Notes: generated by a model from the letters alone, not told the origin. Counted from the first letter of the stretch, positions 633-31,835 are shown. The stretch: 32,000 bases of DNA from Nonlabens ponticola (GCF_003966335.1 NZ_CP034549.1:1500001-1532000), one strand, 5' to 3'. Made by a program: numbers and translations.

Positions 633-646
633 GCTTTCGCGAAAGC
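633..646. repeat. 14-bp perfect palindrome GCTTTCGCGAAAGC, copy 1 (intergenic, between the M23 peptidase stop and the carboxyltransferase start)
   Basis: Exact match read directly from the sequence; preceded by a T8 run. Confidence 0.95.
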
Positions 647-681
647 GTAACAACCACACACATTCTAACACGCAAAATCGC

Positions 682-689
682 TATTTTTG
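682..689 (+). promoter_or_regulatory. Candidate Bacteroidota -7 box TATTTTTG for the carboxyltransferase gene
   Basis: Matches the TAnnTTTG consensus, 16 nt upstream of ATG 706. Confidence 0.4.
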
Positions 690-705
690 AGCAAAGACAT
701 TTTGC

Positions 706-2334
706 ATGGACCTAGACTTCAATAAGAACGAAGATCACAATAAATTACTACTGTCAGATTTGCGACGCAGATTTGCCAAAGTTGCCCTAGGCGGTGGCGA
801 GAAACGCATTGAAAAACATCATGCCAAAGGAAAAATGACGGCTCGCGAGCGCATCGATTACCTGCTGGATGATGCAGATAAAGCGGTTGAGATAGGTGCT
901 TTTGCAGGTGACGGTATGTACGCAGAACACGGCGGTTGCCCTAGTGGTGGTGTGGTGGTTAAGATAGGTCACGTGAGTGGAAAGCAGGTGATCGTTGTGG
1001 CAAATGATGCCACGGTAAAAGCTGGTGCCTGGTTCCCGATTACTGGAAAAAAGAACCTACGCGCACAGGAAATCTCAATGGAAAATAGGTTGCCCATCAT
1101 CTATCTAGTGGATAGTGCTGGTGTGTATTTGCCTATGCAGGATGAGATTTTTCCTGACAAGGAACATTTTGGCCGCATCTTTAGAAACAACGCCGTCATG
1201 AGTAGCATGGGAATCACCCAGATCGCTGCTGTCATGGGTAGTTGTGTGGCTGGTGGCGCTTACCTGCCTATAATGAGTGATGAGGCCATGATCGTTGATA
1301 AAACAGGAAGTATTTTTCTTGCTGGTAGTTATCTGGTGAAAGCTGCCATAGGCGAGAGTATTGATAATGAAACGTTGGGTGGTGCGACCACGCACTGCGA
1401 GATAAGTGGTGTGACCGATTATAAAGCCAAGGACGATAAAGATGCCCTTGATCGCATCAAGAGTGTGATGGGTAAGATTGGTGATTTTGATAAGGCTGGT
1501 TACAACAAAGTAAAAGCTGTCAAACCTGCCAAGGACCCTAAAGAATTATACGGTGTGCTGCCGCGACAGCGTAGCGCACAATACAACATGATGGAAATCA
1601 TTGAGCGCGTGATTGATGCCGACTCTTTTGATGAATATAAGGAAGGATACGGCCAGACCATCATAACAGGATATGCGCGTGTCGATGGTTGGGCAGTTGG
1701 TATCGTTGCCAATCAGCGTCAAGTGGTGAAGACTAAAAAAGGCGAGATGCAATTTGGCGGTGTGATCTACAGTGATAGTGCCGATAAATCTACCCGATTT
1801 ATCGCTAACTGTAATCAGAAGAAGATACCGCTGGTATTTTTACAGGATGTTACAGGTTTTATGGTAGGATCAAAATCAGAACATGGTGGTATCATAAAAG
1901 ACGGTGCCAAGATGGTAAACGCCGTTTCTAACAGTGTGGTTCCTAAATTCACGATTGTGATAGGTAACAGCTACGGTGCCGGAAATTATGCGATGTGCGG
2001 TAAGGCCTACGATCCACGATTGATCGTCGCATGGCCTAGTGCAGAACTTGCCGTAATGAGTGGAAACAGTGCTGCCAAAGTATTGATGCAGATAGAAAAA
2101 GCATCGCTAGAAAAGTCAGGTAAGAAACTGACTGAGGAAGAAGAAAAAGAACTCTTTGCCAAAACTAAAGATCGCTACGACGAGCAAGTGTCACCATACT
2201 ACGCAGCAGCAAGAATTTGGACAGATGCTATCATCGACCCAATGGATACTAGAAAATGGATTTCCACAGGAATCGAGGCTGCCAATCACGCACCGATCAC
2301 CAAGGATTTCAATATGGGTGTGTTGCAGACTTGA
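706..2334 (+). CDS. Acyl-CoA carboxylase carboxyltransferase (beta) subunit, methylcrotonyl-CoA or propionyl-CoA carboxylase type
   Basis: 542-aa ORF. The length and motifs are typical of the carboxyl_trans family (KGKMTARERIDYLLD, VVANDATVKAGAWFP, SCVAGGAYLPIMSD, FLQDVTGFMVGS, GNSYGAGNYAMCG). Substrate specificity cannot be fixed from sequence reading alone. Confidence 0.9.
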   Translation: MDLDFNKNEDHNKLLLSDLRRRFAKVALGGGEKRIEKHHAKGKMTARERIDYLLDDADKAVEIGAFAGDGMYAEHGGCPSGGVVVKIGHVSGKQVIVVANDATVKAGAWFPITGKKNLRAQEISMENRLPIIYLVDSAGVYLPMQDEIFPDKEHFGRIFRNNAVMSSMGITQIAAVMGSCVAGGAYLPIMSDEAMIVDKTGSIFLAGSYLVKAAIGESIDNETLGGATTHCEISGVTDYKAKDDKDALDRIKSVMGKIGDFDKAGYNKVKAVKPAKDPKELYGVLPRQRSAQYNMMEIIERVIDADSFDEYKEGYGQTIITGYARVDGWAVGIVANQRQVVKTKKGEMQFGGVIYSDSADKSTRFIANCNQKKIPLVFLQDVTGFMVGSKSEHGGIIKDGAKMVNAVSNSVVPKFTIVIGNSYGAGNYAMCGKAYDPRLIVAWPSAELAVMSGNSAAKVLMQIEKASLEKSGKKLTEEEEKELFAKTKDRYDEQVSPYYAAARIWTDAIIDPMDTRKWISTGIEAANHAPITKDFNMGVLQT

Positions 2335-2517: not shown

Positions 2518-2521
2518 AAGC

Positions 2522-4274: not shown

Positions 4275-5087
4275 TTAGTCAAGCAATGCTTCCATAGCCT
4301 GCTGCAACTCAAATGCTTCAGCCCTTGCGGCATCTTCAAAATCTTCTTCCTGTGATGCATATAGAATACCACGTGAAGAATTGACTAATAATCCTACTCG
4401 ATCATTAGCTCCGTATTTGTAGACCTCTTCAAGGCTGCCGCCTTGAGCGCCTACTCCAGGTACTAGCAAAAATGAATCAGGAACTATCTGGCGTATTTCT
4501 TTCAGATACTCAGCTTTTGTGGCGCCTACGACATACATTAATCGGTCGCTGTTTTTGTATTGAGAGGCCGTTTTGAGTACCTGTTGATAAACCGGCAGTG
4601 CATCTGCAGTCAGTGTTTGATAATCATAGGCTCCAGCATTTGACGTCAAGGCTAGTAGGATGGCATACTTATCTTTAAACGCTAGAAATGGCTCGACGCC
4701 ATCCTTACCCATATAGGGTGCAATGGTGACGCTGTCAAAATTGAGCTGCTCAAAAAAAGCTTTGGCATATCGGGTCGAGGTATTACCTATATCGCCACGT
4801 TTTGCATCTGCGATGGTGAAGTGATCTGGGTAATTCTCGTTGAGGTATTTGATGATTTTCTCAAGCGATTGCCAGCCTTTGACACCGTAAGCTTCAAAAA
4901 AGGCAGTATTAGGCTTGTAGGCCACACACAAGTCGTGGGTGGCGTCAATGATAGCTTTCGCGAAAGCAAAAATAGGATCATCCTCTTGCAATAAATGGGC
5001 TGGAATCTTCTCAAGATCAACGTCTAGACCTACACACAAGAAGGATTTCTTTTTCTGAATCTGATGATATAGTTGATCTAATGTCAT
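4275..5087 (-). CDS. pyrF: Orotidine 5'-phosphate decarboxylase (type 2 PyrF)
   Basis: 270-aa ORF with active-site motifs LCVGLDVD and [12 protein letters not shown], plus GVGAQGG near the C-terminus. Confidence 0.93.
4954..4967. repeat. 14-bp perfect palindrome GCTTTCGCGAAAGC, copy 2 (inside pyrF, encodes AFAKA)
   Basis: Exact match read directly from the sequence. Confidence 0.95.
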
Positions 5088-8098: not shown

Positions 8099-8572
8099 TT
8101 GATTAAAACAATAGGATTAGGTGGTGGCTGCCACTGGTGTACTGAAGCTGTTTTTAAACGGGTATATGGCGTTAATCACGTGCGTCAAGGTTATATTAAA
8201 AGCGTGTCTCCCGATCATACTTTTAGCGAGGCAATTTTGCTCAAATTTGACGCTCGGGTTGTTTCTCTTGAACGATTGCTGGAAATCCATCTGGCCACGC
8301 ATTCTTCTACATCCATGCACCAGCGCAGGACAGACTATCGCAGTGCTGCCTACTACCTTGACGATGCCACTGGTTTGTTGTTGAGTGATTTGATAGTTAC
8401 GCTTTCGCGAAAGCATCATAAAAAATACATCCTGCAAGTGCTACCTATGGTCGCCTTTAAAGAATCGCGAGAGTCCATTAGAGATTACTATGCAACCAGA
8501 CCAGACGCGCCATTTTGTAAACGCTATATCGAGCCAAAATTAGAAATCGTCAAAGCAATGCAGGATCAATAG
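8099..8572 (+). CDS. Divergent peptide-methionine (S)-S-oxide reductase (MsrA)-like protein
   Basis: 157-aa ORF with a TTG start 10 nt after the preceding stop. N-terminal GLGGGCHWCTEAVF resembles the MsrA GGCFWC catalytic motif, and DYRSAAYY resembles MsrA YRSAIFY. Other canonical MsrA blocks are altered. Confidence 0.6.
   Translation: MIKTIGLGGGCHWCTEAVFKRVYGVNHVRQGYIKSVSPDHTFSEAILLKFDARVVSLERLLEIHLATHSSTSMHQRRTDYRSAAYYLDDATGLLLSDLIVTLSRKHHKKYILQVLPMVAFKESRESIRDYYATRPDAPFCKRYIEPKLEIVKAMQDQ
8401..8414. repeat. 14-bp perfect palindrome GCTTTCGCGAAAGC, copy 3 (inside the MsrA-like ORF, encodes LSRK)
   Basis: Exact match read directly from the sequence. Confidence 0.95.
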
Positions 8573-11589: not shown

Positions 11590-11603
11590 GCTTTCGCGAA
11601 AGC
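11590..11603. repeat. 14-bp perfect palindrome GCTTTCGCGAAAGC, copy 4 (intergenic, between the PUL lipoprotein stop and the ccp start)
   Basis: Exact match. The dyad extends to TTTTGCTTTCGCGAAAGCAAAA (22 bp). Confidence 0.95.
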
Positions 11604-11610
11604 AAAATTA
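11603..11610 (-). promoter_or_regulatory. Candidate -7 box TAATTTTG for the ccp-like operon; its final G is the first base of the 14-bp palindrome
   Basis: Minus-strand TAATTTTG, 38 nt upstream of ATG 11564. Confidence 0.35.
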
Positions 11611-11628
11611 TCAATATCAATTATCTTT

Positions 11629-13113
11629 TTAAAGGGCAATGGGAATCTTACAATCGATGGTTAACAAGGCTGGTTCTTCAAAATCACGGATGTTGTATAA
11701 CCTGTATTCATCAGTTCTCGTACCACCAAAAAGTTGTTGGTTTGTCGCATTTAAAGCAAAATCTAACTCAAAGACGCCAGGACTGATTTCATTGTAGGTA
11801 CCAGATCCACTAATTTGGATGAGCTCGCTGCCGCTATCGTTACCTATTTCAATGGTTTGATCTATTACAAGAACAATGCCTTGAGTGCTGGACGTACCAT
11901 CAGTTGGGAAAAATTCTAGTGCTGGTACGATGTTCAATCCTGGTGATGTATCCTCATCAGTTCCTTCATTAGTGAACCATCTTCTCAAATTAAAAGGATT
12001 TGTGGTGCGACCTTCAAGAAAGGTTTTAAATCCAACTCTAAAGGCGTGATAATATATATCATCACTAGTATCTGCAGTGCCATTGTCATCGCCTAATACG
12101 GCGTTAGGATCGTCGCGATCGACAACCACCGGCTGTGTGAAGGTGTTATAATCATTCCATTCACATTCTCCATCCTGATTAAAATCAAACCAGTGAACAC
12201 CGTATACTCTATAAAACTGGTCGTTTGTATCATAAAACTGAGAGGCGGTATTCAAGGTTATATCACGATCGGACAGTGGTCCACGAATCAATGTGACACC
12301 TGGATTTCCTATAACCTCATAGTCGCTCAACTCGTTAAGATTGAGGTTAGCACGATATGTTTGCTCATCAATGTCAAAATCTTCCAGCGTGCGGAATATG
12401 TACTGTATTTGGTTCTCGCTAGTTACCGGCAACGCCTCAATTTCAAAATTAAAGTTTGAATCTTGAGTTTCAAAAGGATCAAAATCTTCTACATCTTCTT
12501 GTAGAAAACCATTAGGGAATTCTATTGTTATGATGGATTCATCACCAGCTTCACTGCCTATTTCTACACGACTGTCTGACGAGATGCGGTACACTTGCTC
12601 GACTTCTTCTAGATTGATGGTGAGCACGTCATTAGTACGATCTGGATTGGGTGCGCCTATCTCGATGTTGGGATCACTAGCTTGTGTAAGCTGCAATACG
12701 ATACTAGGTTCATCGTCTGCATCCCAGCGCTCATTGATCTGAATTAATAATGTATCAACGAGCTGAGTGCCTTGAAATGTCAATTGATCAGGCGTTATGG
12801 TATACTCATCAATATCATTATCGCTGACTTCATAATTTACGGTTACCAGTTCATCTAGTGGTGCTGAAGTTAATGCCACAGGAACCTTGAGGCTGAAACG
12901 ATCACTCTTATCAAATACTGAGACAGCACTTGATCCCAATTCTATCTGAGGCGCAGTGATAGGATTGTTATCGCTATCAACTTGTAAAAAGAAGCGCACA
13001 AATTGGGTTTGTGATGCGTCAAAGCTGCGACCGTTATCATCTTCTTCGCATGATAGTATGGCTGCACAGCAAAAGGCAAGCAATAAAAATGATCTAATTT
13101 TAATAGCCTTCAT
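11629..13113 (-). CDS. Acidic surface lipoprotein encoded downstream of SusD (SusE/F-position protein; possible Calx-beta-like segment)
   Basis: 494-aa ORF with lipobox (AAILSCEEDD) and very high D/E content. Its start overlaps the SusD stop by 14 nt. The segment VTVNYEVSDNDIDEYTITPDQLTFQGTQLVDTLLIQINERWDADDEPSIVLQL resembles a Calx-beta repeat (inference). Confidence 0.65.
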   Translation of the reverse strand: MKAIKIRSFLLLAFCCAAILSCEEDDNGRSFDASQTQFVRFFLQVDSDNNPITAPQIELGSSAVSVFDKSDRFSLKVPVALTSAPLDELVTVNYEVSDNDIDEYTITPDQLTFQGTQLVDTLLIQINERWDADDEPSIVLQLTQASDPNIEIGAPNPDRTNDVLTINLEEVEQVYRISSDSRVEIGSEAGDESIITIEFPNGFLQEDVEDFDPFETQDSNFNFEIEALPVTSENQIQYIFRTLEDFDIDEQTYRANLNLNELSDYEVIGNPGVTLIRGPLSDRDITLNTASQFYDTNDQFYRVYGVHWFDFNQDGECEWNDYNTFTQPVVVDRDDPNAVLGDDNGTADTSDDIYYHAFRVGFKTFLEGRTTNPFNLRRWFTNEGTDEDTSPGLNIVPALEFFPTDGTSSTQGIVLVIDQTIEIGNDSGSELIQISGSGTYNEISPGVFELDFALNATNQQLFGGTRTDEYRLYNIRDFEEPALLTIDCKIPIAL

Positions 13114-14545
13114 TTTGTATCATGTTTTCGTTATTGATAACGCTCTCTTCTGGGATTGGTAATATGAAAAACGGTGATGGATAAGACAAATTACATACAT
13201 TACTCAAGCAACCCTGATCGCGTTCTATGTCTTTCTCATAACGCATGAGGTCATATAGTAATTGTGATTCAAATGCGACTTCACGCCTGCGTTCCAAGAA
13301 GATTTCTTCAAGTAAATTGTCGGTACTATCAAGGCTTTCAATGCCAGCTCGATTTCTTATATCGTTCAATCTAGATAAGGCCAATCCATTATCAGTATTC
13401 AATCGAGCGAGTGCTTCGGCATGGATCAGATACATCTCGCTCAACCTAATAAACGTGGTTGCGTTATCTTCCTGATATTTGAGTGAGAAATTGTAATCTT
13501 CAAATTCTATTTCTCCAAATCTGCTAGTGGGTAAGGTCTGTTCTTGGTATAATTCTCGTCTTATGTCATCATCTTCAAACAGATCCAATAGGTCATCGCT
13601 GGCCACAAACCTGTTGTAGATATTTTGATTCGTAAATAGATAATAAGCTGAAACACTCGAAGACACATCACCTTCAGAAGTTTGTGGCGCGCTGAAAGTT
13701 AGTAAACCTTCATTTAAATCTTGATCGGTAAGCCATTGATCAACATACTGATCTTGTGATGTTAGAGAGACGTTTGAATTTGATATGACTTCGTTTGCTT
13801 GAAACGCTGCTGTTTCCCAATCATTATATTGCAGTGCGACTCTCGCATAAATTGCTCTAGTATTAGTTTCATTGAAATAAGATCTCTCTGGCCCAACGTC
13901 CAAAAACGAGGTTCCCGTAAAAAGTTCTAGAGCGCGTTCTAGATCTGCTTGCAATAGTTCATAAACTTCATTTACCGTATTTCTTGCAGGAAAATCGATA
14001 CTTGCTTCCAGCTGTCTGGTATTATAAACAATTCCCAGATGGCTGCCGTCTGATGTAAAATTTCTATTTTGAGAAAAAAGTAAGCTTAACTGATAATGCG
14101 ACAAGGCTCTTGCTGTCAACATTTCTGCTTCTAATTGATCTCTTTGACCATCAGTCAAGAATTCAAAAGAGTCAATGTTAGCAAGTATCAAGTTGATAGC
14201 ATTGATGTCATCATATCCATTATCATAATAACTCTCAAAGTCAAAGCTATCTTCTCTGCTTTCAAAATTATACGTCAGATCAATATCAGAAGGCACCTCA
14301 AGTTCTCTATTACTTATACGTGGTGCAAAGGTGATATTACCACCAGTGATTCCAGGATAAGTATGCACAAATCCTGAAAGTTGAGCCTCGATTGAGAAGT
14401 AAATTCCTGATACTGCTTCCTCAACACCTTCTTGGGTAGATAATTGCTCGCTGATAGAAACCTGCTCGTCAGGCTCTACATCTAGAAAATCGCTACAGCT
14501 GGCTAGCATTATAATGAGCGAAATGTATAATAGTCGATTTCTCAT
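13100..14545 (-). CDS. SusD/RagB family nutrient-binding outer-membrane lipoprotein
   Basis: 481-aa ORF with N-terminus MRNRLLYISLIIMLASCSDFLDVEPDEQVS, typical of SusD. TPR-like helical content and a RagB/SusD C-terminal region (YLIHAEALARL, ERRREVAFESQ). TAATG overlap with SusC. Confidence 0.9.
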   Translation of the reverse strand: MRNRLLYISLIIMLASCSDFLDVEPDEQVSISEQLSTQEGVEEAVSGIYFSIEAQLSGFVHTYPGITGGNITFAPRISNRELEVPSDIDLTYNFESREDSFDFESYYDNGYDDINAINLILANIDSFEFLTDGQRDQLEAEMLTARALSHYQLSLLFSQNRNFTSDGSHLGIVYNTRQLEASIDFPARNTVNEVYELLQADLERALELFTGTSFLDVGPERSYFNETNTRAIYARVALQYNDWETAAFQANEVISNSNVSLTSQDQYVDQWLTDQDLNEGLLTFSAPQTSEGDVSSSVSAYYLFTNQNIYNRFVASDDLLDLFEDDDIRRELYQEQTLPTSRFGEIEFEDYNFSLKYQEDNATTFIRLSEMYLIHAEALARLNTDNGLALSRLNDIRNRAGIESLDSTDNLLEEIFLERRREVAFESQLLYDLMRYEKDIERDQGCLSNVCNLSYPSPFFILPIPEESVINNENMIQNEGY

Positions 14546-17500
14546 TAGAAGGTAGTATTTAATCCTATAGATATGGTACGCTGCTGTGGATAGACGTTAG
14601 AAAGTTCTGCAATTGAATTGCGTCCAGATTGCCTACCATCACTGTACCAATAATAAAGGTTTGAACCATTGATATTAAAACTTAACGAGTTTACCGGCAA
14701 TTTCCATTTGTCAACAGGTGCCGTGTAAGACAATGTGATACTTTTTAATTGGATGTTGCTGCCATCATACACATATCTAGAAGAATTTACCAGTGAATTG
14801 CTGTTGGTAGGCGCTGGATTTGCTGCTAGATCACCAGGTTGTCTCCATGCATCAAAAAAAACGTTGAGGTTTAGATTTCGGTTAGTGAGAACATTGTATC
14901 CATCAATGAGATTGCGATCCAGTCTTATGTCACCACCATAGGTAAATGAATTAATAATAGCGAGTTGAAAGGATTTGTAGCTCAATGTATTGCGCATACC
15001 ACCATAAAAGTCAGGTTGTGTATCGCCGATTATTTGAGCGTCTGTAATGTCAAAAAGTTCACGAACCTCATTACTGTCATATATATTACCATCTACTCTA
15101 AATAACTCACGTCCCGTAGCAGGATCAATACCTATTGATTCATAACCAAATAGGGCAGTGGTAGGAGATCCTACTTGCTGCGCTCTAGCCGTTGCCGCAG
15201 CAGAAAATTCTGAGCTCGCTCCCGATAAGGACAATATCTCATTATCAAGCGATGCAGCATTGAAGTTTGTAGTCCAGCTGAAGTTTTCATTATTAAACCA
15301 CTGCGCCTCGATGGAGAATTCAATGCCGCGATTGCGCATCGAGGATCCATTGATCTCAATATTGGTATAACCAGTTTCAGGTAACGCAGGTCGAGTTGTT
15401 ATTATATCATCAATGCGATCATTGAAAAATTCTAGAGTGGCTCTAAAGCGCTGAGCAAAGTTGTAATCCAGTCCTATATTGAATTTATTGTTTTTTTCCC
15501 ATCCTAGATTAGGGTTGGGTGCGGTGCCTTGAGGACTGGCTCGTCTGTCAGTTTGATTGTAACCACCATTATTGATGTCATATAATCCTAGTGCGGCATA
15601 ACTACCTATGCGCGAATTTCCTGTGGTACCGTAGCTTACTCGTAGTCTCAAGAAGTCTGTAAAGTCTGCATCTTTTAAGAATTTCTCATTGGACAATACC
15701 CAACTAACTCCAGCGCCACCATTAAAAGCAGTGTTATTGTCATCACCAAAAGCAGAACTTTGATCTACCCTAAAATTGATCAAAGCAAAATAGGTCTTAT
15801 CAAAGTCATAGGAAATCTGTGTGTATCCAGACCTACCGTAGCGCTCATTAGTATCTGTTTCTCTATCGATTTCCGCAGCACTTTCTATGGGTTGCGGTGT
15901 AGCAAAGTTTTCAAAGTCGGTACCAGCGATATAACTAAGTTCAACAACCTCACCGCGCGTCTCTATTCCCGCAATAGCACTTACATTATGGATATCATTA
16001 AAAGACTGCTCATAAGATGCCGTGGTACTCCAATTCCAGGATCTATTGTTGCGTTCACGCAGTATACGACGGCCAAACTCACCATTGTTGGTAATACCAC
16101 TACCATTCAAACCAGAAAAAAACTTGTCCTCTTCCTTATTAGAGAAGTCAGTACCATAAAGCATGGTGATGTTAAATCTATTATTGAATTTATAATTGAG
16201 GTTGATATTTCCCAGCAAGGCAAAAGTGTTTGCTTCACTTACATTTTGTTGCGCTACCGCAATTGGGTTCCCTATATTGGGAAGTAGCGTTAGGTTACCA
16301 TTTTCATCGCGTACAGGTAAGGTTGGGTCTAGCGGAAAGCTGCCCAATGTATTTGGATTATTTTTAGTTACCCATGATGGACTCAATTTAATTGCTGCAT
16401 TAAATTTATCGGTAACTATGTTGGTTGTGAAGCTTGTATTCCATTGCTCAAAGCTATTGTTCACTTGGGCTTCTTGCCTGTTTTGGTAAGTTACGCTTCC
16501 GCGAAAGCGAACTATCTCACCACCTATATTACCACCTAAACTATATCTAGAAAAAGTACCGTCATCGTTCAATAAACCGAACCAATCTGTATCAACACCA
16601 TTATAAGGACGTACCGCTCCAAAATCACCATTGTTAATGTTATAAATATTCCGCAGTTCATTGAACTGCTCGCCATTCATGTATTGAATTTGATCAAACG
16701 CAGTTGTACGACCACCTTGAATAGAGGCGTTGAGCCTTAGTTTTCCAGGTCGAGCACTTTTGGTGGTTATAAGGATCACACCGTTGGCAGCATCTGCACC
16801 GTATAAACCTACGGCAGCGGCATCTTTCAAGATTTCTATGGATTCAATATCCTGTATTCCTACACGCGCTAGCGGATTCAAGAAATTCTCTGAAAATCTA
16901 CCAGTATCTGCATCAAAGAAATTATTTCCTTCAATGCCTAATTCTTCTGTGAGGATAATGCCGTCCACGATAATTAGTGGCTGTGTACTTGTACCAGATA
17001 CGTTGCCGTCAAGCGGTGTCAGTGATCCTTGCCCGCGTATATCGATAGATACAGGCTCGCCTAGATTTACATTACTGTTGATGAGAACTCCAGCAACTTG
17101 ACCTTCTAATAATTCATCGACGCTAGTGGCTGGCTGTTCAGTTGCTAGTTCCCGTGGTTTGATACTGCTTATACTACCCACAACTTCTTCACGACGTTTC
17201 TTAGTACCATAGGATGAGGTGACAACCACTGCATCAAGTGACTCGATGTCTTCTAGTAACGAAACGTTCACGATAGCTTGATTGTCAACCAGCACTTCCT
17301 TGGTTTCATAACCCAACGCTTTAAAGACTAGAGTAGGTGAAGTGTCGCTACTTGCAGGTATGCTTATGTTGTATTTACCATCAAAGTCTGTTACCGCGCC
17401 TGCATTGGTTCCTTTTATCTGTACCGTAACGCCAAAAAGTGGTTCACTCGTAGATTTATCTATCACGATACCGCTTACCCTAGTGCTATTTTGAGCATTG

Positions 17501-17547
17501 AGAAATCCAGTCATCAATAATAAAAGTAGAAGGAACCAAAATTTCAT
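14545..17547 (-). CDS. SusC/RagA family TonB-linked outer-membrane protein
   Basis: 1000-aa ORF with signal peptide and CarboxypepD_reg-like N-domain (VSGIVIDKSTSEPLFGVTVQIKGTNAGAVTDFDGKYNI). Plug region (IESIEILKDAAAVGLYGADAANGVILITTK) and C-terminal beta-barrel ending ..GLNTTF. Confidence 0.93.
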   Translation of the reverse strand: MKFWFLLLLLLMTGFLNAQNSTRVSGIVIDKSTSEPLFGVTVQIKGTNAGAVTDFDGKYNISIPASSDTSPTLVFKALGYETKEVLVDNQAIVNVSLLEDIESLDAVVVTSSYGTKKRREEVVGSISSIKPRELATEQPATSVDELLEGQVAGVLINSNVNLGEPVSIDIRGQGSLTPLDGNVSGTSTQPLIIVDGIILTEELGIEGNNFFDADTGRFSENFLNPLARVGIQDIESIEILKDAAAVGLYGADAANGVILITTKSARPGKLRLNASIQGGRTTAFDQIQYMNGEQFNELRNIYNINNGDFGAVRPYNGVDTDWFGLLNDDGTFSRYSLGGNIGGEIVRFRGSVTYQNRQEAQVNNSFEQWNTSFTTNIVTDKFNAAIKLSPSWVTKNNPNTLGSFPLDPTLPVRDENGNLTLLPNIGNPIAVAQQNVSEANTFALLGNINLNYKFNNRFNITMLYGTDFSNKEEDKFFSGLNGSGITNNGEFGRRILRERNNRSWNWSTTASYEQSFNDIHNVSAIAGIETRGEVVELSYIAGTDFENFATPQPIESAAEIDRETDTNERYGRSGYTQISYDFDKTYFALINFRVDQSSAFGDDNNTAFNGGAGVSWVLSNEKFLKDADFTDFLRLRVSYGTTGNSRIGSYAALGLYDINNGGYNQTDRRASPQGTAPNPNLGWEKNNKFNIGLDYNFAQRFRATLEFFNDRIDDIITTRPALPETGYTNIEINGSSMRNRGIEFSIEAQWFNNENFSWTTNFNAASLDNEILSLSGASSEFSAAATARAQQVGSPTTALFGYESIGIDPATGRELFRVDGNIYDSNEVRELFDITDAQIIGDTQPDFYGGMRNTLSYKSFQLAIINSFTYGGDIRLDRNLIDGYNVLTNRNLNLNVFFDAWRQPGDLAANPAPTNSNSLVNSSRYVYDGSNIQLKSITLSYTAPVDKWKLPVNSLSFNINGSNLYYWYSDGRQSGRNSIAELSNVYPQQRTISIGLNTTF
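16495..16508. repeat. One-mismatch copy GCTTCCGCGAAAGC inside SusC
   Basis: 13 of 14 bases match. It may be a decayed copy or a chance match. Confidence 0.4.
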
Positions 17548-17555
17548 AAAGACAT

Positions 17556-17594
17556 TTTATAAAAAAGGCTGTAAAGAGTAATCCTTTACAGCCT
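17556..17594 (-). terminator. Rho-independent terminator downstream of the T9SS ELWxxDGT-repeat gene, immediately upstream of susC
   Basis: 11-bp perfect stem AGGCTGTAAAG / CTTTACAGCCT (17566-17576 / 17584-17594) with a 7-nt loop, followed on the minus strand by TTTTTATAAAATG. Confidence 0.75.
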
Positions 17595-17616
17595 AATGTT
17601 TTAAGATGTAAAATTC

Positions 17617-19065
17617 TTACTTAACTGCAAATTTGATAGTCTTGCTTATTTCAGAGTTGCTTACACTTACAAAATAAACACCTGTTTTAAGATTATGCTT
17701 GATAGACGCGTTGTTGATCTCACCGCTTTGAACACTACGACCACTTAGATCATAAACATTATAGTTCATATCATTACTTACCGTACCAGTGAATCTAATT
17801 TCACCGTCAATGGATGGATTGGGATATAGAGTGATCGCACCATTCTCAAATCGTTCAATACTTGCTGTCGCAGCATTGAAAGAAAACAACTCTCTACCAT
17901 CACCATTGTTACCCTCAAAAATTATCTGGTCACCTAATACTACGAGGTCATCCACATCGTCTACCGTGCCGTCGATCTTTCTTATTTCAGCACCGTTAGT
18001 TCTATACAAATTGCGTTCTCCATCATTATTTGCAGTACCCGCATAGTACACTGCATTGTTGTAAACTACATAGTCAGATGGATTGTGATCTTGAAATTCT
18101 CCAGAATTGTTGCTCAATTGAGTGATAATCCCAGTTTCTGTATCCAGTATCCACAGCTGATCACCAGCACCCGTGTCGCCTTCAAAAAGAACATCACCAT
18201 TATATTCAAAGTAATTACTGGTTCCATTCATTCCCAATGAGGCAGCAGCTGGATTTTCTACAGTACCATCTGAAGTACCGTCGCTTTGCCATAAGTTGCC
18301 TTGAGCCTCAAAGTATAGCATATCGTTTGCGATCGTAAAATTGCTTATGCCACTATTTGCATCACCTGTTGCGATATCCTTAACGAGACTGTAAGTGCTA
18401 GTCGCAGGGTTGTAGGAATATAATTCACGTCCTAATTCTTCTTCTTGAAGATTGGTTTCCATATAGGCAAAAACAAGATCGTTGTAGAATGTTACTGCCG
18501 TTGCAGCAACGATTTCTCCATCGATAACGTTTGGTAAAACTTGGGCATCCGTACCATCAAATGAAGCTAATTGGTTATTACCATTGTCAAGATTCACTGT
18601 CAAGTAGGCAATATCACCGGCTACTACTGCATTGTTAGGAACGTCACCATTTCTTGCAGGGAAAAGGTCAACTTTGGTTGTTCCTTCTTCAGTACCATCG
18701 CTAGTCCACAATTCTGAGGCGCCATCGTTTGCTGTGAAATACAATTGATTGTTCAATACAAAGAAATTAAATGGGCTACTACCAGCGCCACTTCCTGGTC
18801 TAATATCTTTCACAAAATTGAGTTCAGAACCATTGGTAGCATACAATTCCCGACCCGCATCTTCACCATCAGTCAAAGATCCAGAGGCATCGTCGGCTCC
18901 AAAAAATACTTGATCACCAAAAACAAATAAATTGTTAGGCGCTGACTGGTTAGGATCACCATCTTCTTCAAATCCAGGATAGATGTCAAAAAGTTGTGTA
19001 GGTGTTTGAGCAAATGCAACTGCTGTGAGAAGCAATAGCGTAAACATTGAGTAGATTTTTTTCAT
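17617..19065 (-). CDS. ELWxxDGT-repeat secreted protein with T9SS C-terminal sorting domain
   Basis: 482-aa ORF with signal peptide. Repeated units include GRELYATNGS, ELWTSDGTEEGT, GRELYSYNPAT, NLWQSDGTSDGT, QLWILDTETG, NLYRTNGAE and GRELFSFNAAT. C-terminal ITLYPNPS...GVYFVSVSN...IKFAVK matches type A T9SS CTDs. Confidence 0.8.
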   Translation of the reverse strand: MKKIYSMFTLLLLTAVAFAQTPTQLFDIYPGFEEDGDPNQSAPNNLFVFGDQVFFGADDASGSLTDGEDAGRELYATNGSELNFVKDIRPGSGAGSSPFNFFVLNNQLYFTANDGASELWTSDGTEEGTTKVDLFPARNGDVPNNAVVAGDIAYLTVNLDNGNNQLASFDGTDAQVLPNVIDGEIVAATAVTFYNDLVFAYMETNLQEEELGRELYSYNPATSTYSLVKDIATGDANSGISNFTIANDMLYFEAQGNLWQSDGTSDGTVENPAAASLGMNGTSNYFEYNGDVLFEGDTGAGDQLWILDTETGIITQLSNNSGEFQDHNPSDYVVYNNAVYYAGTANNDGERNLYRTNGAEIRKIDGTVDDVDDLVVLGDQIIFEGNNGDGRELFSFNAATASIERFENGAITLYPNPSIDGEIRFTGTVSNDMNYNVYDLSGRSVQSGEINNASIKHNLKTGVYFVSVSNSEISKTIKFAVK

Positions 19066-19155
19066 AACGTCTTGATTTAGATGAAGTAATTTAACATTGT
19101 TGTCAAATTCTTGTTAAGTAAAATTAAATAAAATTTATAAGATCGATATGATTTT

Positions 19156-19169
19156 GCTTTCGCGAAAGC
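19156..19169. repeat. 14-bp perfect palindrome GCTTTCGCGAAAGC, copy 5 (intergenic, between the glnN terminator and the T9SS-protein start)
   Basis: Exact match read directly from the sequence. Confidence 0.95.
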
Positions 19170-23114: not shown

Positions 23115-23128
23115 GCTTTCGCGAAAGC
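23115..23128. repeat. 14-bp perfect palindrome GCTTTCGCGAAAGC, copy 6 (in the 44-nt gap between the SUMF1-like stop and the DUF421 start)
   Basis: Exact match, 15 nt upstream of the DUF421 ATG. Confidence 0.95.
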
Positions 23129-24729: not shown

Positions 24730-24755
24730 GCTGCTTAAGCTAGAAAGCTGGAATT

Positions 24756-24795
24756 AAAAAACCCTCAAGAAATGCAATTTCTTGAGGGTTTTTTT
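24756..24795. terminator. Bidirectional rho-independent terminator shared by convergent fsa (+) and the 24811..26259 lipoprotein gene (-)
   Basis: AAAAAA-CCCTCAAGAAAT-gca-ATTTCTTGAGGG-TTTTTTT: a 12-bp perfect stem flanked by an A-run and a T-run. Confidence 0.85.
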
Positions 24796-24810
24796 ATGAT
24801 AACACGACTG

Positions 24811-26259
24811 CTACCTATTAATGTATCCCAGAAGCACGGTCTCAATCTTATAGTAAAATAGATTTATACTGGGATCAATGATTGTCAAGTCATCGTTGAT
24901 AACCATACTACGGTGATTATTGCGCAATGCCAGCTGGCTATTTACTGATGTCTTATCGACAATCTGGTACTCTAAAGAATTATTGAATCCATAATTTTGA
25001 ATATATCCTTTCCATTCTTCATAGGATATATTGTCGATGTTGATACCTATAAATTCTATTTCGGGATATTTGATTTGTAGGTTTTTTACCTGATCGTGAA
25101 TTTCTAGTGCATATTCCTCATCGTTGATGGACCAATAGTAAATGACACTCAAACCATCGACTTCATTAGACAGGTTGATAGACTCGTTAGTCATGCCGCG
25201 CAGGTCAAAATCAGGCAACATGTTTCCGGGATCTAGGTCTATATATGTGGCGGCCATTTGTGTAACCTCTGCATTGAGATTCCTGTCAGTAGATACCGCA
25301 AGAAAGTCTGTGACCAGTTTATTGATTTCAACAGCGTTTTTACGGGTGCGTATGAAGTTTTTTATTTCGGTGGCTGCAAGATGGTTTTTGGTAAATCGAT
25401 CCTCGATCAAATCATCCATCACCTCGATACGTTGTTGGTGAAAGGTATAAGATGTCAAGTCAACATCAGCGTTTGTCTCATTTGACACCTTCTCAAACGC
25501 CTTGTTCGAGATCAATGCATTTATATAAGGACTAAAGGCAAAGTTGTTGAGCAATTTGGGATTTCCTAATTCTACTCTATCACGATGCGAGAAAAATTCC
25601 TCAGGCAATGATTGAGAATTATCTAGGTAAATATTCTGATCTCTATTTAATGGATATTGCTCTAGTTTGTAATAGGAATTGAGCTTAATGACAAAATCTG
25701 TCAAGGCAGTAAAGTGATCGTTGAAATTGTATTTTTCTGCACTTCTTTGCAAGGCTTCTTGACGCTGGTTTTGAACTTGTTTTACCTTATCATAAAACGT
25801 CTGTGGATCATCATTGATGATGCTTAGGAACTCCATATTAGAGCGCTCCATATCAAGAAACAAATCAAGTAGATAACTATTCTCTCTTGCGTGATCTCCA
25901 GTAAAGGATAGGCTCTCATCAAATTCCTTGGTATTGAACCGCAACCTCAAACTGTCGCCAGGAGCTAGAAAAAAAGACTGGTATTCACCTGGGTAACCTA
26001 TGGTGTAAAAGCCTTCATCTGCATTTTTATAGCTTATATCAAAAATACCTTTTTCATCAAGTTTTATGGTGTCATTGACGGTAGCATAGTCAGTCAACAC
26101 TACATAGGAAACTTCAGGATTAACCACTTTTCCCTTAATGATGGTTTTAGTTTCTGTAGGAGAATTGCAGGATGTAATTGATAATGCAGCGCACCACAAT
26201 AGTAGGTATAGGTGACGGTAAGAAGTTAGCTTTCGCGAAAGCTTAAACATAATTCTCAT
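24811..26259 (-). CDS. Lipoprotein with C-terminal thioredoxin-like (TlpA/AhpC-TSA-like) domain lacking the CxxC active site
   Basis: 482-aa ORF with lipobox LSITSC. C-terminal LPDFDLRGMTNESINLSNEVDGLSVIYYWSINDEEY...IEFIGINID follows the TlpA fold pattern, but WCxxC is replaced by WSIND. A 14-bp palindrome lies in codons 6-10. Confidence 0.65.
   Translation of the reverse strand: MRIMFKLSRKLTSYRHLYLLLWCAALSITSCNSPTETKTIIKGKVVNPEVSYVVLTDYATVNDTIKLDEKGIFDISYKNADEGFYTIGYPGEYQSFFLAPGDSLRLRFNTKEFDESLSFTGDHARENSYLLDLFLDMERSNMEFLSIINDDPQTFYDKVKQVQNQRQEALQRSAEKYNFNDHFTALTDFVIKLNSYYKLEQYPLNRDQNIYLDNSQSLPEEFFSHRDRVELGNPKLLNNFAFSPYINALISNKAFEKVSNETNADVDLTSYTFHQQRIEVMDDLIEDRFTKNHLAATEIKNFIRTRKNAVEINKLVTDFLAVSTDRNLNAEVTQMAATYIDLDPGNMLPDFDLRGMTNESINLSNEVDGLSVIYYWSINDEEYALEIHDQVKNLQIKYPEIEFIGINIDNISYEEWKGYIQNYGFNNSLEYQIVDKTSVNSQLALRNNHRSMVINDDLTIIDPSINLFYYKIETVLLGYINR
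26229..26242. repeat. 14-bp perfect palindrome GCTTTCGCGAAAGC, copy 7 (codons 6-10 of the 24811..26259 lipoprotein ORF, encodes LSRK)
   Basis: Exact match read directly from the sequence. Confidence 0.95.
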
Positions 26260-28128: not shown

Positions 28129-28407
28129 ATGGGAGTTTTGCGCCGTAAGAATAAGAAGTACGATTATGAGCCACGCTATTATAAAAGCGAGGAAGGCTCA
28201 AAACCTTTTGAGATCAAGCATAAATTTGATGATCAACGCACAACCGTAAATAGATTAGGGTTGAAAGGCAAATTCAATAATGCCATGCGTGATTATAAGG
28301 AAGGCACTGATGCGCTGGCTAGAAAACGCATTTACATCATTGTTGCAGTTCTCGTGTTTTTGTTTTTGTGGCTTATTGATTTTGATTTATCCATCTTTAG
28401 TTTTTAA
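28129..28407 (+). CDS. Small basic protein with a C-terminal TM helix, first gene of the mutL operon
   Basis: 92-aa ORF with a TAAATTTG -7 box 17 nt upstream and a single C-terminal TM (IYIIVAVLVFLFLWLIDF). It ends 8 nt before mutL. Function unknown. Confidence 0.55.
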   Translation: MGVLRRKNKKYDYEPRYYKSEEGSKPFEIKHKFDDQRTTVNRLGLKGKFNNAMRDYKEGTDALARKRIYIIVAVLVFLFLWLIDFDLSIFSF

Positions 28408-28415: not shown

Positions 28416-30245
28416 ATGTCAGATATCATTAGGTTATTACCTGATCACGTTGCAAATCAAATTGCCGCTGGTGAAGTTGTTCAACGACCAGCCAGTGTCG
28501 TCAAAGAATTATTAGAGAATGCCATTGATGCTGACGCACGTGAGATTTCGTTAATTGTAAAGGATTCTGGTAAGACTTTGATCCAAGTGATCGATGATGG
28601 TAAGGGTATGAGCACCATGGATGCACGCATGGCTTTTGAAAGACATGCCACTTCAAAGATCCAGTCTGCTGACGAATTATTTAATCTTTCTACCAAAGGA
28701 TTTAGGGGTGAGGCGCTAGCGTCAGTAGCCGCAGTATCTCATGTAACTATTAAGACAAAACGTCCAGAAGATGATCTGGGAACCACTATTTCTATTGAAG
28801 GTAGTAAAGTGATTGCTCAAGAACCTGCTGTGGCTCCGGTAGGAACGACTGTGAGTGTGCGCAATTTGTTTTACAATGTTCCTGCACGCCGCAAGTTTTT
28901 AAAATCGGACAATGTTGAGTTGCGTAATGTGACTAATGAGTTTCATCGTGTAGCACTAGCGCATCCCAAGATTCATTTCAAATTCTCACATAACGGCAGC
29001 GATTTATTCAATCTACCTGCAGGAACTTATCGGCAACGCATTGTCAATGTCATGGGTCATAAGGTGGACGATAAACTTGTTGAGATCAAGGAAGAAACAG
29101 AATTGCTCAATATCCATGGATACATAGGTAAACCAGAATATGCTAGAAAAACCAAAGGACTGCAATATTTCTTTGTCAACGATAGATTCATCAAGCACTC
29201 TTATCTTCATCATGCAGTTTCTAGCGCTTTTGAAGGATTGTTGTCTCAAGGCTCTAACCCTAGTTATTTTCTATTTCTGGATGTACCGCCAGATAGCGTG
29301 GATATCAATATACACCCAACTAAGACAGAGGTAAAGTTTGAGGATGAGCACAGCTTGTATGCGATCATAAGAGCAAGTGTTAAGCATGCCTTAGGACAAT
29401 TTACCATTAACACTATCGATTTTCAAAAGGATACAGAACTTGATGTACCGTATGAAGTGAGTAGATCTGCTATTAAATCACCTCGTATAGAGGTAGATCC
29501 AGATTTTAATCCTTTCAATGATACGGGTTCATCTAGAAAGGTTCATCAACATATTCAAAAACCTGCTGGATCTTGGGAATCGTTGTATGCTGGACTAGAT
29601 GATACGAGTGTATTGCATGATGAAACTGTGACTAGTCCCAGAAATTCTACTTCATTATTCAATGATGATGTAGAGCAAACGGGCTCCAGTATTTTCCAGT
29701 TGCAGCGCAAGTTTATTATTAGCACGCTGCAAAGTGGTTTACTGGTAATCAATCAACATCGAGCGCATGAGCGCGTATTGTACGAGCAATTATTGAGACA
29801 GCTTACCGTTCAAAATGGGGTGAGTCAGCAATTGTTATTTCCTGTAAAGATCAATCGATCACCAGATGAGGTTGATATTGTCAAACAATTACAAAGTCAA
29901 TTAGAGAGCGTAGGGTTCTTATTTGGTATTATTGAAAATAATGTCATAGAAATTCAAGGTTTACCGCTGGACTTGAAAGAACCACAAGTAGAGCCACTAC
30001 TGGATGTCGTGATAAAGTCAGAGCAAGAACAGGTACCGCAACAGCAAGATGCACAATTGCAGCGCATGGCGGCTCAATTGGCAGGACAAATGGCGATTAA
30101 GACAGGTGAGCAATTACGAGTAGAGCAAATGCAGCAAGTCATTGACGAGCTTTTTGCTTGCGAGGAACCAGCGCTATCACCAGCTGGTAAAAAAGTATTT
30201 ATTACGATTACGGGCGATACGCTCAGTTCAAAATTTGACCATTAA
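28416..30245 (+). CDS. mutL: DNA mismatch repair protein MutL
   Basis: 609-aa ORF with GHKL ATPase N-domain motifs (IAAGEVVQRPASVVKELLENAIDA, DDGKGM, GFRGEALASV) and a C-terminal dimerisation domain. Confidence 0.95.
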   Translation: MSDIIRLLPDHVANQIAAGEVVQRPASVVKELLENAIDADAREISLIVKDSGKTLIQVIDDGKGMSTMDARMAFERHATSKIQSADELFNLSTKGFRGEALASVAAVSHVTIKTKRPEDDLGTTISIEGSKVIAQEPAVAPVGTTVSVRNLFYNVPARRKFLKSDNVELRNVTNEFHRVALAHPKIHFKFSHNGSDLFNLPAGTYRQRIVNVMGHKVDDKLVEIKEETELLNIHGYIGKPEYARKTKGLQYFFVNDRFIKHSYLHHAVSSAFEGLLSQGSNPSYFLFLDVPPDSVDINIHPTKTEVKFEDEHSLYAIIRASVKHALGQFTINTIDFQKDTELDVPYEVSRSAIKSPRIEVDPDFNPFNDTGSSRKVHQHIQKPAGSWESLYAGLDDTSVLHDETVTSPRNSTSLFNDDVEQTGSSIFQLQRKFIISTLQSGLLVINQHRAHERVLYEQLLRQLTVQNGVSQQLLFPVKINRSPDEVDIVKQLQSQLESVGFLFGIIENNVIEIQGLPLDLKEPQVEPLLDVVIKSEQEQVPQQQDAQLQRMAAQLAGQMAIKTGEQLRVEQMQQVIDELFACEEPALSPAGKKVFITITGDTLSSKFDH

Positions 30246-30940
30246 TGTTTAGTAATATCACACCTGTAGTACGCAATTTGATCATCTTGAATGTCGTGAT
30301 GTACATAGGTACCGTTTTTCTCGCGCCACAGCTGTATTATGATTTCAGTTTATGGTTTTTTAAACATCCTGAATTCGATTTCTGGCAAATCTTCTCGCAT
30401 ATGTTTATGCATGATTCGCGCAGTTTCATGCATATCCTTTTTAATATGTATGGTTTGCTATTATTCGGGCCACTGTTGGAACGATGGATGGGATCCAACC
30501 GATTTATATTTTTTTATCTCGCTTCAGGAATTGGTGCTTATTTATTAACGACAGGAATAGATTATTTTCAATACGTTCAGACCGTTGCCGAATTAGAATC
30601 TAAAGGCTACAGCGCTAATGAAATACCTAATATCCTTTTCACCAAAACCTCACTGGCAGTTCCTATGGTAGGAGCAAGTGGTTGTCTCTTTGGTGTATTG
30701 GCAGGGTTTGCTTATTTGTATCCCAATCTAAAGTTGCAATTGCTGTTTATACCAGTACCAATTGCTGCAAAATGGTTGATAGGCGCTTACGTCGCTTATG
30801 AAACACTTGCCACCATTGGAATCATTAATTTACAAGACAATATTGGTCATGCAGCACACCTAGGTGGTGCGATATTTGGCTTTATTATGGTATGGTATTG
30901 GAAACGTAACGACTACGATCAATATAGAATAGACAACTGA
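30245..30940 (+). CDS. Rhomboid family intramembrane serine protease
   Basis: 231-aa polytopic ORF with catalytic GxSG (GASGCLFG) and His (HAAHLGGAIFG) in TM helices. TAATG overlap with the mutL stop. Confidence 0.88.
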   Translation: MFSNITPVVRNLIILNVVMYIGTVFLAPQLYYDFSLWFFKHPEFDFWQIFSHMFMHDSRSFMHILFNMYGLLLFGPLLERWMGSNRFIFFYLASGIGAYLLTTGIDYFQYVQTVAELESKGYSANEIPNILFTKTSLAVPMVGASGCLFGVLAGFAYLYPNLKLQLLFIPVPIAAKWLIGAYVAYETLATIGIINLQDNIGHAAHLGGAIFGFIMVWYWKRNDYDQYRIDN

Positions 30941-31803
30941 TGGATTTTATAGATTCTGTAAAACTTAAATATAAACAGCTTGACGTACTAGGTCAGCTCA
31001 TTGCCACGGTGGTAGTAGTGAATCTGGTTATATATCTGGCTTCTTTATTGTATCAACCCATCTGGAGTTGGTTTGCGTTGCCCGCTGGCTTCATTGAACC
31101 ATTATTGCAACCATGGGCTTTTATCACCTATGGGTTCTTGCATGGTGGCATTTTTCATCTATTGATAAACATGTACATCTTGTACATTATGGGTCAGTTT
31201 TTACTCAATTTATTTACTGGTAAACAATTACTATCGCTGTTTTGGGCAGGCGTTCTTGCCGGTGGTCTTGCATTTACGGCTGTCAGCGCCATTTTCACCG
31301 AATTTTTATTCAATACCCAATTAGTGGGTGCCAGCGCTGGTGTTTTTGCAGTGGTGTTTTTTGTATGCACCTATATGCCTGATCATGAGATACGCCTATT
31401 TTTTGTACTCAACGTTAAGCTCAAGTATTTGGCATTAGTGTTTTTAGGTTTTGACCTTATCGCCATTTTCACTGGCGTCAATGCTGGTGGTAGTATCGCT
31501 CATTTAGGTGGCGCCGCTTTGGGATATTATGCTGCAACGCGCATGAAAGATGGTATTGATGTATTGACAGGAGTTTCTGCTGCTGGTGATTGGTTAGGTA
31601 ATTTATTCAAGTCATCTGGTAAGCCTGCCAAAAAATCCAAAATGAAAACCGTTTACAAAAGTGCCAACAAGAAAAAAGCCGCCGGAAATCCAAAAGATCA
31701 ACAAGCGCGCATTGACGCTATACTTGACAAGATCAGTGCTTCTGGTTATGACAGCTTGAGCCGTGCCGAGAAGGATTTTCTCTTCAAGGCTGGAAAGGAG
31801 TAA
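30940..31803 (+). CDS. Rhomboid family protein (second paralog) with a Lys-rich linker and small C-terminal soluble domain
   Basis: 287-aa ORF with HGGIFHLLINM, GASAGVFAVV (Ser retained, GxSxG variant) and IAHLGGAALG. C-terminal tail KPAKKSKMK...ILDKISASGYDSLSRAEKDFLF. TGATG overlap with the previous rhomboid. Confidence 0.82.
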   Translation: MDFIDSVKLKYKQLDVLGQLIATVVVVNLVIYLASLLYQPIWSWFALPAGFIEPLLQPWAFITYGFLHGGIFHLLINMYILYIMGQFLLNLFTGKQLLSLFWAGVLAGGLAFTAVSAIFTEFLFNTQLVGASAGVFAVVFFVCTYMPDHEIRLFFVLNVKLKYLALVFLGFDLIAIFTGVNAGGSIAHLGGAALGYYAATRMKDGIDVLTGVSAAGDWLGNLFKSSGKPAKKSKMKTVYKSANKKKAAGNPKDQQARIDAILDKISASGYDSLSRAEKDFLFKAGKE

Positions 31804-31821
31804 AGTTGTTTTTTTGTTTAC

Positions 31822-31835
31822 GCTTTCGCGAAAGC
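31822..31835. repeat. 14-bp perfect palindrome GCTTTCGCGAAAGC, copy 8 (between convergent gene ends after rhomboid 2)
   Basis: Exact match. The dyad extends to ACGCTTTCGCGAAAGCGT (18 bp). Confidence 0.95.

Follow-up and report, generated by a model that had tools for sequence, protein, structure and literature searches.

An iterated 14-bp palindrome as the core of a clade-specific DNA signal in Dokdonia and Nonlabens

The window and its copies of the palindrome

The stretch of DNA examined here (the window) comprises 32,000 nucleotides of Nonlabens ponticola (GCF_003966335.1, NZ_CP034549.1:1500001-1532000). It is ordinary Flavobacteriaceae chromosome, with genes for an M23 peptidase, a carboxyltransferase, MscS, pyrF, release factor 1 (RF-1), msrA, an AIR-synthase-like protein, cytochrome c peroxidase, SusD/SusC, a protein sorted by the type IX secretion system (T9SS), glutamine synthetase III, transaldolase, an ABC-F protein, MutL and rhomboids. 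Distributed over it is a 14-bp perfect palindrome, GCTTTCGCGAAAGC, with exact copies starting at positions 633, 4954, 8401, 11590, 19156, 23115, 26229 and 31822 (n = 8). A search of the window recovered these eight and a single one-mismatch copy, GCTTCCGCGAAAGC, at 16495, just as the original prediction had reported, and no further match with two mismatches or fewer. Dinucleotide-preserving shuffles of the window (n = 100) contained 0.06 matches on average and 1 at most. The results described below show that GCTTTCGCGAAAGC is the core of a genome-wide, clade-specific and dyad-symmetric DNA signal, in the class of the highly iterated palindrome HIP1 and of the uptake signal sequences (USS) and DNA uptake sequences (DUS).

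Mapping of open reading frames (ORFs) agrees with the earlier assignment of five of the eight exact copies to intergenic gaps and of a sixth to the first ten codons of a gene. The intergenic copy at 633..646 follows the M23 peptidase stop codon by 28 nt and precedes the carboxyltransferase start by 60 nt, and its right flank, or arm, is free of G over 20+ nt. The copy at 11590..11603, flanked by TTTT and AAAA, has the stop of ORF 11629-13113 on one side and the likely ATG (11564) for cytochrome c peroxidase on the other, and counts as intergenic provided that the peroxidase gene starts at this ATG. The copy at 19156..19169 separates the genes for glutamine synthetase III (stop at 19246) and the T9SS-sorted protein (start at 19065). 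At 23115..23128 the palindrome is found 15 nt past the stop of an FGE-sulfatase-like gene and 15 nt ahead of the start of a YetF-like gene, with GTAA as its right flank, and at 31822..31835 it follows the stop of the second rhomboid gene by 18 nt, with flanks TTAC and GT. The sixth copy (26229..26242) encodes K-L-S-R-K within the first ten codons of a thioredoxin-like gene (ORF 24811-26259), next to a divergently transcribed ABC-F gene; the 14-mer is exact at the orthologous place in a Nonlabens metagenome-assembled genome (MAG; L141), where the flanks have diverged. The remaining two copies are positioned inside genes. The one at 4954..4967 lies in the minus-strand gene pyrF and codes for A-F-A-K-A in what we call frame 0 (GCT TTC GCG AAA GC), and the one at 8401..8414 lies in msrA and codes for L-S-R-K, with a left arm lacking C for 27 nt and a right arm lacking G for 19 nt. 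The one-mismatch copy (16495..16508) is located in a SusC-like TonB receptor gene. In view of its canonical GTTAC flank and of arms poor in G, it represents either a copy in decay or one in the making.

The window's largest interval free of exact copies (11604-19155, 7.6 kb) covers the SusD/SusC-like pair and the gene for the T9SS-sorted protein, and holds just the one-mismatch copy in the SusC-like gene. This gap may hint at a lower motif density in accessory polysaccharide-utilisation genes. Elsewhere in the window, a 92-residue ORF directly upstream of mutL (28129-28407) has no Pfam match.

Distribution and anatomy of the unit

An 18-mer seed consisting of the motif and its commonest flank, GCTTTCGCGAAAGCGTAA, was used to scan 185,579 species-representative genomes (596 Gb). 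The seed matches four of the eight window copies on one strand, and about 17 chance matches are estimated for 596 Gb. Among the matches listed, 118 of 120 stretches belong to Dokdonia, Nonlabens or unclassified Flavobacteriaceae and uncultured MAGs, representing roughly 45 species; the other two are single-copy records from Polaribacter and Muricauda and are consistent with chance. The seed matches listed lie scattered along whole chromosomes. Within the listed stretches (908 kb) there are 224 exact copies, or 1 per 4.06 kb, a density equal to that of the window, and 20 one-mismatch copies. A pooled sample of 1.06 Mb from about 45 genomes of Dokdonia, Nonlabens and related Flavobacteriaceae contains 256 exact copies (1 per 4 kb) and just 26 with one mismatch. 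Markov models of orders 1 and 3, for which related DNA (1.06 Mb) served as training set, predict 0.001-0.003 copies per 1.06 Mb and fewer than 1e-4 per window, which corresponds to an over-representation of the 14-mer of more than 10^5-fold. The enormous enrichment that had been claimed from an expectation of about 1e-4 copies in the window is thus carried genome-wide and the window is no fluke.

The boundary of this distribution was examined in an independent sample of 80 metagenome loci anchored on the RF-1 gene of the window (prfA). The seven closest loci, with RF-1 identities of 89–94%, have 24 copies in 118 kb, and the other 73 (RF-1 identity 85% or less, 0.92 Mb) have neither an exact nor a one-mismatch copy. 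The motif is therefore confined to the Dokdonia/Nonlabens branch of Flavobacteriaceae, and by extrapolation a 3.3-Mb genome of this branch would carry about 800 copies. In the pooled sample shorter cores are almost confined to the full 14-mer, with counts of 285 for TTCGCGAA, 282 for TTTCGCGAAA, 263 for the 12-mer and 256 for the 14-mer; 195 of those copies extend to a 16-mer with C/G at ±1. The earlier statement that no equivalent has been described for Flavobacteriaceae stands for the literature searchable here, in which neither the 14-mer, nor its core, nor such a repeat in Dokdonia or Nonlabens was found.

The flanks were profiled by pooling 232 copies and reading every flank outward. The outward consensus is G (0.87), T (0.60), A (0.83), A (0.64), so that the palindrome is typically framed as TTAC/GTAA. 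The C/G pair at ±1 is present in about 87% of the copies from related genomes and less often in the window. Beyond it, the outward-reading strand is depleted of G (3–12% against a background of 19%) out to about position 18–22, and A peaks at +4, +7, +10 and +13, that is, in a 3-nt register. The arms of the window copies contain 14 G in 270 positions (5%). The profile is unchanged in the halves that are not biased by the seed pattern and is alike in coding and intergenic copies. It is also alike upstream and downstream relative to transcription, with equal G depletion on both sides. The original prediction had seen in the flanks a mere T-rich/A-rich bias and no longer conserved unit. The first part of this description does not hold in view of the ±1 C/G, the TTAC/GTAA consensus and the outward strand depleted of G over about 18 nt. 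The second part holds insofar as no sequence is shared between the arms of different copies, but not for the unit as a whole, which is a dyad of about 50 bp composed of an exact core and compositional arms in a 3-nt register. On either side, the strand that runs 5'→3' into the palindrome is T/G-rich and C-poor.

Two simple origins of the arm pattern were rejected. A transcription-linked asymmetry is incompatible with upstream and downstream arms that are equally G-depleted; this leaves room for a role in RNA, because a palindrome yields the same RNA from either strand. The period-3 signal is not a by-product of coding, since it persists in arms that are at least 25 nt away from any ORF (amplitude 0.53 against 0.13 in shuffles, a value reached by 0 of 2000 shuffles). 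Arms without any G over +4 to +15 make up 54% of the intergenic and 39% of the coding arms, against a background of 8.6%. Between orthologues the arms are no better conserved than distant flanks (78% vs 77%).

A dyad of this kind could act in RNA or in transcription, as a terminating, stabilising or RNase-processed hairpin or as the operator of a global regulator. This would fit the location of five of the window's eight copies, which occupy short spacers no more than 100 nt away from a start codon, an intergenic density per base that is about 7 times the coding density in the pooled sample, and the ability of the 22-mer to form, as DNA, a 9-bp stem (predicted energy -7.3 kcal/mol). However, 110 of 232 copies (47%) are inside ORFs as called by a home-made longest-ORF heuristic, and the three kinds of spacer are used about equally (tandem 67 copies in 64 kb, divergent 26 in 24 kb, convergent 11 in 17 kb, about 0.7-1.1 per kb each). 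The T-rich 5' and A-rich 3' flanks are the reverse of terminator polarity, the centre that would correspond to a loop is itself palindromic, and the unpaired arms are mirror images that do not pair. Only 1 of 18 two-mismatch variants is compensatory, i.e. palindromic, the stem of the 14-mer is no stabler than those of shuffled sequences (z = -0.2), and no copy has a match in Rfam 15, even at E <= 1. An extended hairpin was rejected as well: folding energies are unremarkable and the left and right arms of a copy are no more complementary (5.84/15) than arms taken from different copies (5.93/15), with no sign of covariation. An ordinary operator was ruled out in view of the lack of a positional relation to promoters. 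The proposal of an RNA hairpin element thus found no support in polarity, variants or predicted stem, and we regard an RNA or transcription element as very improbable.

For comparison, the convergent genes for transaldolase and the thioredoxin-like protein of the window are separated by a genuine bidirectional terminator (24753-24797). It has the canonical order of A-tract, stem and T-tract, built on a 21-nt inverted repeat (AAAAAACCCTCAAGAAAT / ATTTCTTGAGGGTTTTTT) that is 95% complementary and has a 3-nt loop; weak Rfam hits at this site (His_leader, MIR8001) are spurious. Unlike this terminator, the palindrome has reversed flanks and makes free use of divergent spacers and ORFs, which led us to reject an intrinsic terminator.

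Origin, maintenance and spacing of the copies

The pyrF site indicates how copies arise. The peptide FAFAKAIID is identical in all eight motif-bearing genomes compared (the window and seven metagenome contigs), but the exact word occurs in five of them and the other three have synonymous variants with one or two mismatches (GCTTTTGCGAAAGC, GCTTTTGCTAAAGC and GCTTTTGCAAAAGC), without indels. A regular-expression search recovered the site in these eight genomes only, as synteny is lost in the others. In msrA, the copy at 8401 aligns without gaps to solved MsrA structures and introduces no insertion. These alignments show that copies are written into existing sequence by substitution rather than insertion, in genes via codon choice. 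Of the 110 coding copies, 57 are in frame 0, which puts the A/T peaks of the arms on wobble positions.

Mobility of a miniature element, be it a repetitive extragenic palindrome (REP) or REPIN mobilised by a RAYT transposase, a miniature inverted-repeat transposable element (MITE) or a remnant of an insertion sequence (IS), would account for the high copy number, the palindromic core and the enrichment in spacers. Yet nothing but substitutions distinguishes orthologues that have an exact copy from those that do not; neither indels nor target duplications are seen, and arm sequences are unrelated between copies. Half of the copies are in ORFs, and they are singletons that repel each other instead of clustered doublets. 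The mobile-element explanation is therefore largely refuted and hardly credible, and the earlier view that the repeat is not a MITE or IS remnant is sustained by arms that lack conserved sequence and by orthologues that lack indels.

Two further observations concern the position of copies relative to genes. Where a gene ends just upstream of a copy, the copy tends to be in its reading frame: of 39 stop codons within 30 nt, 25 are separated from the motif by a multiple of 3 (P = 8e-5). With the consensus flank, a frame-0 copy reads GCG TAA and makes a stop codon, and three ORFs end in this way (L119-L238 and the window). In addition, copies occur about 10 nt upstream of a tRNA gene (…GCCGACGTAGCTCAGGGG) in L138 near 3639 and L162 near 7169, a site common to a Flavobacteriaceae MAG and Nonlabens tegetincola.

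Conservation was measured on the prfA-anchored metagenome loci, from which orthology was taken because all-against-all BLAST of 8-kb genome blocks gave too little overlap. At aligned orthologous sites the 14-mer is exact in 60 of 78 cases (77%), compared to 127 of 2664 control 14-mers (4.8%) from the same alignments. Counts for a mismatch load of 0, 1, 2 and 3 are 256, 26, 18 and 41, so over-representation drops steeply but steadily. The same steep and steady fall has been described for uptake sequences (PMC1939737). These data show that the exactness of the copies is kept by selection or by a drive coupled to recombination.

The excess of the exact form, about 10 times the one-mismatch forms, could also be produced without any function of the word. 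An orphan methyltransferase acting on TCGCGA or CGCG may be accompanied by biased repair, in which correction of the very-short-patch type turns near-matches into the exact word, making it a methylation-linked motif of the HIP type. The commonest internal one-mismatch variants are indeed transitions, including the CpG change GCTTTTGCG, and an association of HIP1 with orphan methyltransferases has been described (PMC4390886). Known patch-repair systems, however, read 4-6 bp and not 14-16 bp plus arms. Outside the motif TCGCGA is neither favoured nor avoided, as it occurs about 97 times per Mb in genomes that have the motif and 92 times per Mb in relatives that lack it; the same figures leave the earlier suggestion of a restriction target at TCGCGA without support. 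A repair bias would also leave the even spacing of the copies unexplained, and a lytic phage that replicates in a Nonlabens host has neither copies nor near-copies. Biased repair is accordingly an improbable source of the motif.

This phage, P12024S (L319, NC_018271), has no copy in its 35.7 kb even at two mismatches; among its genes are one for a DNA methyltransferase and recombination genes of its own (Erf/exonuclease). A scan of IMG/VR with the bare 14-mer yielded mostly chance or conserved single matches in unrelated high-GC phages, and several copies per contig were found in low-GC flavobacterial contigs only. Each of two contigs with phage structural genes, L089 and L053, has three copies with typical arms over 11–12 kb, which is a host-like density. 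The former encodes a portal protein and a major head protein that is 45% identical to that of a Cellulophaga phage; the latter is a provirus from an isolate genome. Since P12024S is free of copies while prophage-like contigs have them, the motif is not imposed on all DNA that replicates in the host. On the basis of this one lytic phage, it builds up in DNA that is resident in the chromosome or undergoes recombination with it. A high-GC viral family (L001, L010, L013, L017, L019, L026, L041 and others; about 51-53 kb, 65% G+C) shares one identical copy within cttgccacgacgGCTTTCGCGAAAGCcgcgatcggctc. This is a single conserved site of an unrelated phage lineage and lies outside the flavobacterial phenomenon.

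Copies repel each other and are spaced more evenly than expected by chance. Gaps shorter than 1 kb were observed 7 times where 34 were expected, and gaps shorter than 2 kb 29 times where 62 were expected; none of 2000 simulations gave values as low. In the window the smallest gap is 3.1 kb (P = 5e-5). Gaps of about 100 nt or less account for 2 of 128 and have unrelated spacers, so close pairs are rare and are not doublet elements.

This regularity, the perfect dyad of the core and the symmetric footprint of about 50 bp are what one could expect if a protein specific to the clade bound the motif to organise the chromosome, as in the pairs parS/ParB, NBS/Noc, matS/MatP and SBS/SlmA. Such a dimer, bound every ~4 kb, would structure or segregate the nucleoid, and selection for occupancy would keep the copies exact and spaced. 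Sites that are conserved where flanks diverge, and listed seed matches that extend over whole chromosomes, fit as well, and the periodicity of HIP1 has been read in this way (PMC5861425). The extrapolated number of sites per genome is 10-100 times that of known systems, though, and strand-asymmetric arms in a 3-nt register are unexpected for a binder of double-stranded DNA. The TTTC and GAAA half-sites recall parS and NBS, but here they are separated by N2 where parS and NBS have N4, which makes a ParB-type reader unfit. The analysis also yielded no candidate protein. Of the alternatives considered this is the main one, but we consider it doubtful.

Relation to known signals and possible function

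Comparison with known iterated sequences places the motif in the HIP/USS class. HIP1 (GCGATCGC) is likewise a short perfect palindrome that is hyper-abundant genome-wide, present in genes and spacers and clade-specific. Conservation of orthologous sites, which implies selection, and a quasi-regular, non-random spacing have been reported for HIP1 (PMC5861425) and are seen for the present motif too. The motif is not HIP1 itself. It has 14-16 bp where HIP1 has 8, a different sequence and a host in Bacteroidota instead of cyanobacteria, it is about 4-10 times sparser, and it possesses long strand-asymmetric arms with a 3-nt register. Palindromic form, over-representation and site conservation are nevertheless common to both.

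The USS and DUS of Pasteurellaceae and Neisseriaceae also number hundreds to thousands of copies and are common to related genera. They share with the motif an origin by point substitution in less constrained codons and spacers (PMC1939737), a sharp and steady drop with mismatch load, and a weaker extended flank consensus. Both the copy number in genes and spacers of related species and the accumulation by substitution with a fall over mismatches were thus found for the motif. An even spacing has been reported for USS. The original prediction had likened the motif to HIP1, to uptake sequences and to REP elements. The likeness to HIP1, USS and DUS is borne out by substitution origin, occurrence in genes and spacers, conservation, clade restriction and spacing, but REP-like behaviour is unsupported because 47% of the copies are in ORFs and because they are evenly spaced singletons. 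REP, BIME and REPIN sequences are indeed abundant palindromic repeats enriched between genes, yet REPs are extragenic, imperfect, 20-40 nt long, often clustered and copied by RAYTs, whereas half of the present copies are intragenic, and they are exact, solitary and made by substitution.

Chi sites, the recognition sequences of RecBCD and AddAB, have a similar density (~1 per 4-5 kb), require an exact word, are accommodated in genes by codon choice and are taxon-specific. They place GT-rich DNA on the strand that becomes the RecA-loaded 3' tail. For the Chi activities of attenuating the RecBCD or AddAB nuclease and promoting the loading of RecA, the motif offers no more than a suggestive composition and 3-nt register of its arms. 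Their over-representation is few-fold, against more than 10^5-fold here, and a 14-bp palindrome is not the asymmetric, oriented word of 5-8 nt that defines Chi. The sites parS, NBS, matS and SBS are likewise palindromes of 13-16 bp that are bound by dimers and scattered over the chromosome, and parS and NBS have TTTC/GAAA half-site arms as in the present motif. They occur in tens of copies and not hundreds, are confined to chromosomal domains, have half-sites separated by N4, and are not known to have compositional arms. With its TTTC-N2-GAAA geometry, some 800 copies by extrapolation and listed seed matches over whole chromosomes, the motif is neither parS nor NBS.

In view of the above, we tentatively propose that the motif is a self signal of the HIP1/USS class, with DNA uptake and/or recombination as its most likely function, a reading to which we give somewhat less than even chances. 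The symmetry of the footprint suggests that a symmetric, presumably dimeric, reader of DNA and not of RNA would see about 50 bp, consisting of the palindrome of 14-16 bp, the TTAC/GTAA flank and the mirror-image arms. The signal would mark DNA as 'self' for uptake and/or recombinational processing, and the T/G-rich, C-poor strands of the arms could become 3'-ended single strands that accept RecA-type filaments. The arms have the polarity of strands that would be left as 3' tails if DNA were broken, or its processing arrested, at the dyad. RecA binds DNA in a 3-nt register and has a preference for GT-rich sequence. A self signal would explain why the clade boundary is on/off, why the mismatch profile is so sharp, why copies are spaced as they are and tolerated in coding sequence, and why lytic phage and prophage-like contigs differ. 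Two published findings are in keeping with it. HIP1 has lately been linked to transformation, and natural competence is described for species of Riemerella, a genus assigned to Flavobacteriaceae in the paper cited, with a reported preference of R. columbina for its own DNA (PMC7965970).

Several points weigh against a self signal for uptake or recombination. USS and DUS are not palindromic but asymmetric words of 9-12 bp, and with about one copy per kb they are some 4 times denser than the present motif, a palindrome found about once per 4 kb. Their hosts are demonstrably competent and have known uptake machinery. We know of no competence, uptake bias or recombination effect in Dokdonia or Nonlabens. 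Chi sites are asymmetric words of 5-8 nt, co-oriented with replication, an orientation that is impossible for a palindrome. Symmetry, spacing and conservation would be accounted for just as well by a structural nucleoid protein. The putative link between the arms and RecA is one of resemblance to the 3-nt register of RecA and its preference for GT-rich DNA, and this account of the period-3 pattern is conjectural. The phage contrast comes from one lytic phage and presupposes that its host strain carries the motif. The ORF statistics inherit the limits of the heuristic with which ORFs were called.

A further-reaching form of the uptake/recombination proposal can be considered. The motif could be the first sequence-specific DNA-uptake or recombination signal known in Bacteroidota, and a mechanistically new one, in which a dimer would attach to the dyad, where it might also cut DNA or halt its processing, and the mirror-image arms would have evolved into optimal 3' tails that nucleate RecA or DprA filaments. 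A single symmetric site would then serve DNA that enters, or is resected, from either direction. We regard this as an unlikely possibility. To our knowledge no such signal is known in Bacteroidota. The motif is best placed within the HIP/USS class, as a member that is longer than those known and palindromic with structured arms.

Few iterated signals span whole genomes in the way of USS, DUS, HIP1 and Chi, and each has been informative on how bacteria recognize their own DNA. The function of HIP1 is still debated after 30 years, and the motif of Dokdonia and Nonlabens provides a second, independent palindromic case alongside it. The possible mechanism is constrained by its extended footprint, in which the arms are strand-asymmetric and follow a 3-nt register. 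The sharp boundary between genomes with the motif (RF-1 identity of at least 89%) and those without (at most 85%) makes phylogenetic profiling for the reader gene feasible, and the motif occurs in cultivable marine model bacteria, including isolates of Dokdonia and Nonlabens. Whatever its role, the motif can serve as a strong taxonomic marker when metagenomic contigs of the clade are binned. If a role in uptake or recombination is true, sequence-biased gene exchange exists in Bacteroidota, and placing the motif on donor DNA might improve genetics in Dokdonia and Nonlabens.

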